Source of the DNA: Minisyncoccota bacterium
GTDB lineage: Bacteria > Patescibacteriota > Minisyncoccia > Phycocordibacterales > JBAZVT01
NCBI GenBank assembly: GCA_041660745.1
Contig: JBAZVT010000003.1
Location: 1,880 to 65,879, forward strand
Direction: 5' to 3'
Length of the DNA: 64,000 bases
Part shown: in pieces, positions 37,520 through 40,500 of the stretch
Layout: each line of letters starts with the position of its first letter
Position numbering within the stretch: the first letter of the stretch is position 1
Notes under the pieces: generated by a model
What the model was told of the DNA's origin: nothing
The model's database searches: none
What the model saw: the letters and a program-made list of their open reading frames with translations, nothing else
Program-made: the position numbers and the translations under genes

Positions 37520-40500
37520 TGGACTAATTAGTACACCTCGGCTCAACACATTACTGTGCGTACACCTAGTGCCTATCACCTGGTCATCTCCCAGGGGTCT
37601 CATAACGATTTCTAATCTTGGAGTTGGCTTCCCTCTTAGATGCTTTCAGAGGTTATCCATTCCCGACATAGCTACTCTGCGGTGCCCTTGGCAGGACAGC
37701 AGATACACCAGAGGTCAGTTCAACTCGGTCCTCTCGTACTAGAGTCAAATCTCCTCAAAAATCAACGCCTGCAGTAGATAGGAGACCAACCTGTCTCACG
37801 CTTGATATCACTTATTACTAAGTGCAATGGACTATAGCTTCATTCGCACAGTGCAAATGGTTGATGTTTAGTCTCTACGGGCTCCGTAAATTACGAATTC
37901 CCTCGATATTAGCCGTGCACGAAGTGCCTTTGGCTTCCACCGATATAAATCAACTTTGTTTCTATTTCTCCGAAGAAAAATAGAGACCGCCGTGATGTGA
38001 TTGGTTTCTTTTCTTTTATATTATTACAGTTAAGTAATAATTTTCTAAACGAAATGTTTTATAACAGTATTCCTTTGAGCGTCTATTCTCATAGACTAAC
38101 CCATAATATATTTCTTGAAATGTCCTCGCGGATTCAGAACGTCTTGCAGACAAAGCATGCGCTTAATCTTCAAAACGGTCTGAACCCAGCTCGCGTAACT
38201 TTTTAATTGGCGAACAGCCAAACCCTTGGGACCTTCTCCAGCCCCAGGATAAGTTGAGCCGACATCGAGGTGCCGAACTCCGCCGTCGATATGGACTCTT
38301 AGGCGGAACTAGCCTGTTATCCCTAGAGTAGCTTTTATCCGATAATCTCCCACCGCATCTAATGCGAATGGTCGGTTCACTTGGTTCTGCTTTCGCACCT
38401 GTTTGACATGTACGTCTCACAGTCAAGCTGGCTTATGCCCATACACTATCGGCACGGTTTCCATTCGCGCCTAGCCAACCTTAATAAACTCCTCCGTTAC
38501 TTTTTAGGAGGATAGCGCCCCACCAAAACTGCCCGCCAGGTACTGTCTCTATTCGTTTTTGCCGAATAGGTTAGAAAATATCTCTTCACAGAACGGTGTT
38601 TCATCGACGAGTCCATCTGAGCCGAAACCCAAACTTCAACCTCTACCGTCTACGCTACGCAGTAAAAAAATATTCTCAATACCAAGTTACAGTAAAGCTT
38701 CTAGGGTCTTTTCGTCTAACTGCAGGTAACCGGCATCTTCACCGGTATTGTATTTTCACCGAGCGGGTCCTCGAGACAGTTCTCCAATCATTACACTATT
38801 CAACGCGTCGGAACTTACCCGACAAGGAATTGCGCTACCTTAGGACCGTTATAGTTACGGCCGACATTCACCAGGGCTTACAACAGTCAGCTTGATATAA
38901 TCGCACCGCCGTTGTTTGACCTTCTGGCATTGGTCAAGTGTCACCCCCTATACATCCTCTTGCGAGTTCGCAGGGAGCTGTGTTTTTGTTAAACAGTTGT
39001 CAGAGATACTTTAGCTGCGGCCTGTATTGCTACAGGCAAGCCTTATTCCGAAGTTACGGCTGCTTTTTTGCAAAGTTCCTTGAGGACTTCTCACTCGTTC
39101 GTCTTGGTCTACTCGACCTGATCACCTGTGTCGGTTTGCGGTACGGATTCTATATAGTTATGCTTAGAAGTTTTTCTTGAAAGTTTGCTTTGCTGTATCT
39201 GTCTTGGCGAACCAAGACATTTCCACTCCACTTGAGGACGTAATTAAATACAGACTCCCGGATTTACCTGGGAATCACTCTTATGGCATGAACATAAATC
39301 CAATAATATGCACAGCATACTAAACTCTGTCACTCCATCGCACTATATAGAAGTCATGGAATATTAACCATGTGTCCATCGGCTGCGGCTCTCGCCATTG
39401 CCTTAGGCCCGACTAACCCTTGGCTGATTGACATCGCCAAGGAAACCTTGATCTTTCGACGTGCAGGACTCTCACCTGCATTGCGGTTACTTGTGCCAAC
39501 ATTCTTACTTCCACACGCTCCAGCATGGGTCACCCCTTTGCCTTCAACGCAGAGTGGAATACTCTCCTACCACTATATCCATCCGAAGATGGATCTAATC
39601 CTCAGTTTCGGTATTACGTTTAAACCCCGATTATCTGCGGCGCAAGATCTCTTACTGAGTGAGCTGTTACGCTTTCTTTAAATGATGGCTGCTTCTAAGC
39701 CAACATCCTCAGTGTCTGAGAAATCTTACCACCTTAAGCGTACTTAACGTAAATTTAGGGACCTTAAATAGAGATCCGGGCTGTTTCCCTTTTGACCAAT
39801 GGAGCTTAGCCCCCACAGTCTAACTGCTGAATAATTGACCTTTGGTATTCGGAGTTTGATAGGTCTTGCGATATTTCTACCTGTCAAGACCTTCCAGTGC
39901 TCTACCCCCAAAGGGTACATTCAACGCTAGCCCAAAAGCTATTTCGGAGAGAACCAGCTATTACCAGGCTCGATTAGCTTTTCACTTCTATCCACAAATC
40001 TTCCGAGAGTTTTGCACGGCTCACCGGTTCGGGCCTCCCTCTTGATTTCTCAAGAGTTCACCCTGTTCATAGATAGCTCGCTCTGGCTTCGGGTCTGATG
40101 TATACCACATACGCACTATTCATACTCGGTTTCCCTATGACTCCGTCCTCGCGGACTTAGCCGAGCGGTATGCATCAACTCGTTGGCTCATTCTTCAATA
40201 GGCACGCCATGACGGTCCGCACACTATGTACGATACTTGTGTTTAAAAACACAAAATCGCGCACACTGTGCGGACCGCGCTGACTCCTTGTAGGCATATG
40301 GTTTCAGGTCTATTTCACCGCCCTTAACGGGCTGCTTTTCACCTTTCCCTCACGGTACTAGTTCACTATCGGTATCTGAGAATATTTAGCCTTGCCGGTT
40401 AGTCCCGGCGGATTCCCTCGAGCTATTCATGTCTCGAGGTACTCAAGAATGGTAATCAAGAGTTGCATTAGTTTCGCATACAAGACTATCACTTACTAGG

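Follow-up and report, generated by a model that had tools for sequence, protein, structure and literature searches.

The 23S rRNA gene on the minus strand of the window (the whole 64-kb stretch of contig JBAZVT010000003.1 analysed here, positions 1-64000) is interrupted by a 374-nt insert, which is very probably a self-splicing, endonuclease-less group I intron of a Candidate Phyla Radiation (CPR) 23S gene, with a motif in an enlarged L1 loop that is proposed to capture the 5' exon. The insertion lies between Escherichia coli 23S positions 2593 and 2594, the L2593 site. The gene, the intron and its flanks are laid out as follows, with intron nucleotides (nt) counted from the first base of the insert.

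37507..40906, minus strand: 23S rRNA gene (Rfam RF02541, LSU_rRNA_bacteria, 2371 bits over the full model; alignment to E. coli 23S)
37251..37359, minus strand: 5S rRNA gene, downstream of the 23S gene (Rfam RF00001, 78.1 bits)
37801..38174, minus strand: group I intron of 374 nt without an open reading frame (ORF), inserted after U2593 (boundaries, Rfam, alignment, fold, covariation)
38175..38187, minus strand: final 13 nt of the 5' exon, GGGUUCAGACCGU (E. coli 2581-2593), targeted by the internal guide sequence (IGS) as well as by the L1 motif (sequence, E. coli alignment, pairing analyses)
37785..37800, minus strand: start of the 3' exon, with CGUGA (P10 target, 37796..37800) and GGUUGGU (+10 to +16, 37785..37791) (sequence, pairing analysis)

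On the minus strand, the conserved exon ...GCUGGGUUCAGACCGU is interrupted at 38174 by UUUGAAGAUUAAGC..., and the insert runs to ...GUGAUAUCAAG at 37801, where the exon resumes as CGUGAGACAGGUUGG. Excision of 38174..37801 rejoins ...GGGTTCAGACCGT|CGTGAGACAGG... and renders the gene colinear with E. coli 23S, its length being 3400 nt with the intron and 3026 nt spliced, compared to the 2925 positions of the Rfam model. Alignment of the intron-free window gene places the final base of exon 1 at position 2595 of the 2906-nt annotated E. coli 23S copy, whose landmarks (A-loop) are offset by +2, so that the position is read as U2593. The insert is preceded by a U and its own final base is a G (37801). 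The site, which is also that of the Chlamydomonas Cr.LSU/I-CreI intron, lies in helix 93 in the peptidyl-transferase region. An original prediction made from the sequence alone had proposed a 374-nt insertion in a conserved 23S stretch whose removal restores contiguity, a preceding U and terminal G, and an I-CreI-type site near position 2593; the alignment bears out all of these, the last also through relatives at the same site that encode full-length I-CreI homologues. Cyanobacterial L2593 introns occupy this 23S site as well (Haugen et al. 2007, PMC1995217).

The prediction of a group I intron is equally upheld, by an Rfam match, a guide sequence that forms P1 and P10, a terminal omega-G and a fold supported by covariation. 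In a 601-nt search the Rfam model Intron_gpI (RF00028) matches 38045..37808 on the minus strand from end to end (model 1-253), with 45.1 bits and an E-value of 2.9e-10. The gathering score of 50 bits is not reached, and a gathering-threshold Rfam scan reports nothing in the insert, only the 23S and 5S genes. This shortfall is explained by the 179-nt L1 and an atypical P2, which the model reads as insertions. Within the alignment, GUAGAGACUAAAC coincides with the P7/J7-3 consensus and GAAGCUAUAGUCC with the J8/7-P7' consensus, in agreement with their earlier designation as resembling the group I R and S core elements. Other faint Rfam matches in the insert (miRNA, clpP leader and sRNA models; E 1-10) were dismissed as noise.

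A single-sequence minimum free energy (MFE) fold yields P2, P3, P4-P5, P6, P8 and P9 with z = -3.4, and the complete set of P1, P10, P2-P9 and P9.0, including the P3-P7-P8 pairing, can be drawn.

37991..37995, minus strand: P10 guide UCACG (nt 180-184), pairing with 3' exon CGUGA (RNAalifold; CG/AU/CG/GC kept in 34 of 34)
37984..37990, minus strand: internal guide sequence GCGGUCU (nt 185-191), forming P1 with exon AGACCGU and a G.U at the splice site (sequence, pairing analyses)
37962..37983, minus strand: P2 hairpin CUAUUUUUC-UUCG-GAGAAAUAG (MFE fold, RNAalifold, covariation)
37949..37954, minus strand: P3 5' strand GUUGAU, with partner AUCAAC at 37860..37865 (compensatory changes in 5 of 6 pairs)
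37903..37943, minus strand: P4 (UCGGUG/UAUCGA) enclosing P5/P5a (37912..37934) (Rfam alignment, RNAalifold, covariation)
37879..37902, minus strand: P6/P6a hairpin, the position of the LAGLIDADG ORF in relatives, empty here (covariation, ORF placement in relatives)
37869..37875, minus strand: P7 5' strand GAGACUA ("R"), with partner UAGUCC at 37829..37834 ("S") (invariant in 34 of 34, Rfam consensus)
37835..37858, minus strand: P8 (short, 37842..37858) and J8/7 GAAGCUA (37835..37841) (Rfam alignment, covariation)
37801..37827, minus strand: P9.0 (UUG 37825..37827 with CAA 37802..37804), P9 with a GUAA loop (37809..37824) and omega-G (37801) (covariation)

Covariation was assessed in 34 compact L2593 members aligned from the guide sequence to the 3' exon, the window copy being one of the rows. 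RNAalifold predicts P10, P2, P3, P4, P5, P6/P6a, P8 and P9 from this alignment, with compensatory changes in 30 of 42 pairs. When P7 and the 3-bp P9.0 are added, 95.2% of the cells are standard pairs, compared to 34-43% in controls slid by 1-3 columns. Double changes occur in 33 of the 51 pairs and none of 500 shuffles attains the observed values, while all three pairs of P9.0 and all six of P9 covary. Furthermore, 51 columns are invariant across the alignment, including, by construction, the window copy. The conserved P4-P6 and P3-P7-P8-P9 domains with the P3/P7 pseudoknot are present; the intron ends in omega-G, and P7, with its guanosine-binding G-C pair and a bulged A, is identical in all 34 members. 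This comparative evidence establishes the predicted group I fold for the L2593 family, and the window copy conforms to it. The P7 5' strand and P3' are separated by AAC only (3 nt), leaving no P7.1/P7.2 extension in the window intron. The L2 loop of the window copy is UUCG on a long P2, where most family members have an AUA-GNRA-UAU tip, and this copy may have lost a peripheral contact of the tetraloop.

Intron nt 180-191, UCACG|GCGGUCU, are fully complementary to the joined exon ends AGACCGU|CGUGA, save for a G opposite the splice-site U, and a U.G wobble P1 and a P10 are formed from this one guide region. The P10 pairing CACG:CGUG is preserved in 34 of 34 aligned members and the splice-site U.G in 47 of 47 distinct sequences, and archaeal relatives with a GAACGU exon carry GCGUU in place of GCGGU. 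Statistics on the guide and on L1 were drawn from introns delimited among the matches listed in a scan of species-representative genomes for the pattern GAAGNTATAGTC-N15-45-CGTGAGACAG, which gave at least 120 loci. Among these matches, 63 members of a CPR-type set were collected by regular expression and a few more by eye; the members with CCGU-type exons number 54. In these 54 members the guide forms U.G with exon position -1 and Watson-Crick pairs with -2 and -3 throughout, and pairs with -4 in 53. Pairing then declines to 40 members at -5, 36 at -6 and 13 at -7, positions -9 and -12 being beyond the guide, and in 14 of the 54 members (GCGGC...) it is limited to 4 bp.

The position of the guide, far from the intron's 5' end, had escaped the original prediction. 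The family falls into two groups in this respect. In canonical members (exon GAACGU, including Thermosynechococcus) about 10 nt separate the 5' splice site from the guide GCGUUCU, after which come the P2 and P4 motifs seen in the window intron. In CPR-type members the distance to the homologous guide is 45-330 nt, and in the window intron it is 179 nt. The description of this copy as reduced holds for its ribozyme core of about 195 nt and its empty L6, but not for the 5' 179 nt, an expanded L1 loop that had gone unrecognised. The following elements are discerned in and next to this loop.

38143..38174, minus strand: L1 hairpin 1 (nt 1-32), predicted to stack on the exon:motif helix, with the 5' splice site mid-stem (MFE folds; same in 53 of 54 relatives)
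38130..38142, minus strand: candidate exon-binding motif of L1, ACGUUCUGAAUCC (nt 33-45), with 12 of 13 positions able to pair with the 5' exon (complementarity, covariation)
38112..38139, minus strand: hairpin 2 (nt 36-63), in which the motif alternatively pairs intramolecularly with a 3' strand resembling the exon, GCGA loop (fold, L1 sequence comparison)
38042..38055, minus strand: L1 hairpin 3 with the family-conserved UUUCGUUUA (nt 120-133) (conserved in many long-L1 relatives)
38006..38111, minus strand: lineage-specific L1 middle (nt 64-169) with several hairpins and an A-rich tract (fold, similarity comparison)
37999..38005, minus strand: pre-IGS heptamer ACCAAUC (nt 170-176), a tentative distal binding site for the 3' exon, able to pair with GGUUGGU at +10 to +16 (complementarity in the family)

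The 13-mer, with the family consensus ACAGUCUGAAUCC, is complementary to the exon at 11-13 of its 13 positions in nearly all 54 members, compared to about 9.4 in shuffled L1 sequences. Exon positions -5, -6, -7, -9 and -12 are paired with the motif in 54 of 54 members, and pairing is close to 100% over the whole of -5 to -12. Closer to the splice site, -1 and -2 are mostly paired, -3 is mismatched in 47 of 54 and -4 is paired in 44 of 54; in the window the mismatch lies at -4 instead of -3. The two variable exon positions are followed by the motif and not by the guide. At -6, exon G or A is tracked by motif C or U (35 GC, 12 AU and no unpaired cases), and at -8, exon C or U is tracked by motif G or A (42 CG, 4 UA and 1 UG). 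The double-change cells number 16, compared to 3.4 +/- 1.4 in shuffles (0 of 500 reaching that value), and on a rough neighbour-joining tree built from flanking exon sequence the paired changes arise about seven times at -6 and about three times at -8. In 53 of 54 members the MFE structure is the stem formed by the exon, hairpin 1 (which varies in size between members) and the motif, the median gain being -17 kcal/mol; the whole stem of the window intron reaches -29.5 kcal/mol, compared to -9.9 for exon:guide alone. The same L1 layout recurs in four intron-carrying metagenomic loci that were found by their exon signature alone, and the long L1 with its motif is also present in members bearing a homing-endonuclease gene (HEG). 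Taken together, the comparative evidence shows a motif apparently selected to pair with the 5' exon, which is read here as a second exon-binding site.

The pre-IGS heptamer lies 2-3 nt upstream of the P10 guide and follows the family pattern ~AYYRAYC. Among the matches listed, it is complementary to +10 to +16 at all seven positions in 26 of 63 members and at six in 22 of 63, its variants including many pairing-preserving transitions as well as transversions. No detectable similarity to other introns was found for the L1 middle (nt 64-169). In seven loci from DPANN-type archaeal metagenome-assembled genomes (MAGs; L021, L024, L031, L046, L081, L085 and L115) the guide, ACGGCGUU, is also displaced by 45-330 nt. 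The L2593 introns of this archaeal type have another conserved 5' sequence (…CUAACGAA…CCCGUACC…), and the complementarity of a 13-mer to the exon is not significant in these DPANN relatives. An origin of L1 from a repeat or mobile element was rejected, there being no second copy elsewhere in the window and no match in the phage collection.

The endonuclease is absent from the window intron, as had been predicted. The longest ORF touching the insert encodes 69 amino acids (aa), the four longest have no significant Pfam match, and when 35 HEG ORFs of L2593 relatives are compared with the intron by tblastn, the matches are at chance level only (best E 0.019 among hundreds of tiny ones), leaving no detectable trace of a HEG remnant. 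The ORFs of HEG-bearing relatives are single-motif LAGLIDADG proteins, and the one in relative L117 shows full-length similarity to I-CreI (E 1e-20) and also matches I-MsoI and I-CvuI. In these members of the sub-family the ORF is located between the P6 5' strand and the P7 5' strand, that is, in L6. The 24-nt P6 hairpin of the window intron is compact, with an empty L6, and no single-motif LAGLIDADG endonuclease of the I-CreI family is encoded by the intron. The core is homologous by BLAST and alignment to the HEG-bearing L2593 introns L026, L044, L045 and L117 and to the canonical members. Judged by this homology, the window intron is a HEG-less member of the I-CreI-type intron family, and it cannot home by itself because L6 is empty.

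The canonical splicing steps most likely apply. The guide GCGGUCU would pair with AGACCGU to form P1 with the obligatory U.G at the cleavage site, GTP would attack after U2593, and the P10 helix UCACG:CGUGA would align the 3' exon for omega-G-mediated exon ligation, with P7 of the compact P2-P9 core holding the guanosine site and P9.0 positioning the terminal G. In CPR hosts helix 93 is strengthened by a C-G pair at 2590:2604, and the native helix would compete with P1 and P10; for this reason a two-part binding of the 5' exon is proposed for CPR L2593 introns, consisting of a minimal guide (often 4-6 bp), the L1 motif and possibly the 3'-exon heptamer. The motif would capture the 5' exon co-transcriptionally in a long stem containing the splice site, and the mismatch at -3 (-4 in the window) would offer a foothold to the guide. 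As the guide invades, the motif would then serve as the anchor of the exon. Exon positions -1 to about -5 would be occupied by the guide in the active state and -5 to -13 by the motif, an arrangement that would help P1 to outcompete native helix 93. This sequence of trapping followed by anchoring is put forward tentatively, as a plausible reading that falls short of being probable; the main support for cooperation comes from the 14 of 54 members in which the guide pairs over only 4 bp.

The same stem can be read as a negative switch, which masks the 5' splice site and keeps P1 from forming as long as nothing opens it, completion of the ribozyme, a helicase or ribosome assembly being examples of what might, and which thereby prevents premature 5' cleavage. 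The stem is indeed far more stable than P1, both in the window and in the median gain for the family, and in most members motif positions 1-2 pair with exon -1 and -2, placing the splice-site U opposite an A and not opposite the guide G. However, the conserved mismatch weakens the very part that the guide must invade, and the 4-bp guides would hardly be stable as P1 without the adjoining exon:motif helix. A switch is for these reasons considered rather unlikely as the full account, although it retains appreciable weight, and the two roles are not mutually exclusive and may represent successive states of one pathway. Several points also weigh against the splicing intron with a helper motif as set out above. 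The Rfam score lies under the gathering threshold, the motif-exon covariation stems from two variable exon positions only, in sequences related by descent, and the pairing of motif positions 1-2 with exon -1/-2 competes with the guide for the same bases, so that the motif need not act as a purely cooperative anchor. In addition, since L2 is UUCG where most members have GNRA and P8 is very short, a tertiary contact may be absent and activity could depend on protein or on the context of ribosome assembly. Splicing activity, together with the role and order of the two exon pairings, is inferred from sequence.

Readings that deny the insert or its L1 a function fare less well. The absence of a HEG, the UUCG loop, the minimal P8 and the sub-gathering score would be compatible with a decayed, catalytically dead relic, carried in a non-functional 23S copy or removed by host nucleases and ligases. 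Such a relic is improbable, as the window copy retains every family-invariant core nucleotide, the G.U, P10, P9.0 and omega-G, with pairing in all of its helices, the exons belong to an otherwise complete and well-scoring 23S gene, and retention in helix 93 at the peptidyl-transferase centre would be disruptive. Other helical insertions do occur in this gene, such as an 88-nt hairpin near E. coli position 273, and inserts resembling intervening sequences (IVS) occur in CPR 23S genes according to a CPR rRNA survey (Tsurumaki et al. 2024, PMC11270868), so that an rRNA expansion segment or RNase III-type IVS, retained or cut to leave a fragmented 23S, has to be weighed as well. The complete, covariation-supported group I architecture with a guide that fits both exon ends, the absence of the insert without replacement in some relatives, and a position not among the known IVS sites make this the most improbable of the readings; an RNase III-processed 23S IVS is a simple long stem that takes the place of a variable helix tip and is cut out with no ligation, whereas the window insert has a multi-domain fold in conserved helix 93. 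The 5' 179 nt could alternatively be the scar of a lost HEG or other mobile insertion in L1, without a role at the RNA level. ORFs in L1 occur in other group I introns, for example that of I-PpoI, and the L1 middle is lineage-specific and dissimilar to relatives. However, the HEG of this family sits in L6, HEG-bearing members keep the long L1 with its motif, no similarity to the 35 L2593 HEGs is detected, and conservation together with covariation with the exon is seen for the motif, hairpin 1 and the pre-IGS element. A scar is accordingly very improbable and, given the location of the family's HEGs in L6, L1 as the remnant of a HEG was rejected.

The distribution of the relatives places the window intron in a broad family. 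Among the matches listed, 107 introns were delimited at L2593, with a bimodal length distribution: forms without an ORF span 213-560 nt, and almost all of those measuring 640-840 nt contain an ORF (90-206 aa). The 374 nt of the window intron fall in the mid-range of the listed ORF-less forms. The 23S exons of the window are 83% identical to those of MAGs assigned to Minisyncoccia, Paceibacteria/Paceibacterota and Parcubacteria and 66% identical to E. coli, and the exon variant GACCGU is common to the loci labelled as CPR. The host is thus probably a CPR/Patescibacteria (Paceibacteria-like) bacterium, judging from this similarity, which agrees with the CPR context assumed in the original prediction; rRNA introns are documented in CPR bacteria (PMC11270868). 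In that survey, insertions are reported in 82% of 23S genes and are stated to be removed from transcripts, LAGLIDADG_1 ORFs predominate at certain sites, 2593 among them, and 222 ORF-less group I introns in 23S genes are scattered over the phylogeny (Tsurumaki et al. 2024). The window intron is an ordinary HEG-less member of this widespread and already documented class.

A metagenome scan with a 33-nt exon-2 signature, blind to intron content, recovered 13 loci from 23S genes 82-86% identical to that of the window. In two of the 13 the L2593 site is uninterrupted and the others carry introns of 349, 368 or 801 nt, none of the 13 loci having an intron close to that of the window. Since some of these closely related 23S genes have an empty site or different introns, the L2593 site is polymorphic among relatives, as for a mobile element gained and lost. 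In relatives L123, L128, L129, L132 and L135 the alignment blocks are broken at window-exon positions ~2070/2091, 2639 and 2796, and L111 has foreign sequence from about 68 nt into exon 2; other intron sites thus seem to be filled in relatives and empty in the window gene. For the VWA protein encoded nearby, only a 2.8-kb Logan contig (SRR18595301) lacking the rRNA genes was recovered, and the genome of the window is not among the loci listed in either scan.

Among the matches listed, L2593 introns are found in MAGs labelled Acidimicrobiaceae/Actinomycetota, Gammaproteobacteria, Eremiobacterota, Saganbacteria, a Mollicutes-related endosymbiont, and Asgard and DPANN archaea, and also in CPR bacteria and Thermosynechococcus. 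The 2007 compilation lists few bacterial L2593 cases, a narrower range than the loci listed here (PMC1995217). Three loci in MAGs labelled Bathyarchaeia, Bdellovibrionales and Omnitrophota (L044, L075 and L098) combine the CPR-type exon AAACCGU with CPR-type introns and are probably mis-binned CPR contigs. In L050 and L051 the stretch between the end of exon 1 and the matched 3' junction opens with a copy of the exon-2 start (CGUGAGACAG... and CGUGAGGCAG...), which points to duplication of part of the exon, to an intron located a short way downstream or to an artefact of assembly.

Elsewhere in the 23S gene, the 88-nt insertion relative to E. coli near position 273 (window 40547-40634, minus strand) forms a very stable extended hairpin, the 121-nt region around it having an MFE of -40.6 kcal/mol (z = -4.6), and on this predicted fold it looks like an expansion or IVS-like helix and not like an intron. 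Smaller insertions of 16 and 33 nt near E. coli 532-552 (40214-40282) and of 17 nt near 1508 (~39234-39250), all on the minus strand, are accompanied by several small deletions. No 16S rRNA gene or tRNA gene was found anywhere in the 64-kb window, which holds only the 23S and 5S genes; in the absence of a 16S gene from this stretch, the rRNA genes appear to be unlinked in the host. The GC skew flips from positive to negative at about window positions 27000-28000, where the cumulative skew has its maximum and across which gene orientation also shifts; the region may mark the terminus of replication or a point of strand switch.

For annotation, a score under the Rfam gathering threshold means that standard pipelines would miss the intron and call a broken or over-long 23S gene instead. 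The scan also indicates that L2593 introns are far commoner than the classic handful, with at least 120 loci drawn from Actinomycetota, Proteobacteria and CPR bacteria as well as DPANN/Asgard archaea. The one aspect that may be new is the conserved L1 motif that tracks the exon in the CPR sub-family; a limited literature search found no description of a displaced guide or a second exon-binding site in group I introns, and no priority is claimed. If the L1 pairing is functional, it would show a route by which a small ribozyme contends for its own splice site against a strong native helix of the rRNA and would offer a natural design for extended guides in engineered group I ribozymes. Split recognition, if true, would be a natural solution, similar to that of group II introns with their exon-binding sites (EBS1/EBS2), to splicing out of a stable rRNA helix.

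The ~200-nt core with P2 and P9 hairpins, without P5abc and with a P9.0 that positions omega-G, is characteristic of small introns of the Azoarcus tRNA-Ile type (IC3). The window family shares the core size and, in most members, the GNRA loops of P2 and P9, and this subgroup likeness is a lead only; the host gene and the insertion site are different, and L2 of the window copy is UUCG. In group II introns, two intron segments, EBS1 and EBS2, read adjacent stretches of the 5' exon by pairing with the intron-binding sites IBS1 and IBS2. The window intron resembles this arrangement in that its guide would read -1 to -5 and its L1 motif -5 to -13, but only by analogy, as group II introns are another ribozyme class with another chemistry. 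According to Woodson and Cech, an alternative 5'-exon helix, P(-1), reportedly competes with P1 in Tetrahymena pre-rRNA. There, as is proposed here, an extra pairing around the splice site modulates how P1 forms and how the exon is held, but P(-1) is an exon-exon hairpin.

The closest known counterparts are the group I introns at position 2593 of CPR 23S genes, which in the survey by Tsurumaki et al. (2024; PMC11270868) share the host group, site and type of the window intron and include LAGLIDADG_1 as well as ORF-less forms. The survey sorts inserts by Rfam hit and ORF content, and its searched passages do not mention secondary structure, a displaced guide or an L1 motif. The cyanobacterial (Haugen et al. 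2007, PMC1995217) and chloroplast (Cr.LSU) L2593 introns with a HEG of the I-CreI family occupy the same site, and the Thermosynechococcus intron (L066) has a core homologous to that of the window in P2, P4, P7 and J8/7. These introns are 744-748 nt long and carry a HEG, about 10 nt lie between their 5' splice site and the guide, and the cyanobacterial ones (of subgroup IA type as drawn) have P7.1/P7.2 extensions between P7 and P3' (PMC1995217). The window intron, in contrast, lacks a HEG, has only 3 nt from P7 to P3' and possesses an L1 of 179 nt. Finally, extended guide sequences have been engineered into trans-splicing ribozymes (PMC3895272, PMC6155759); these are man-made 5' extensions, whereas the partner in the window intron is a natural, conserved segment inside L1.

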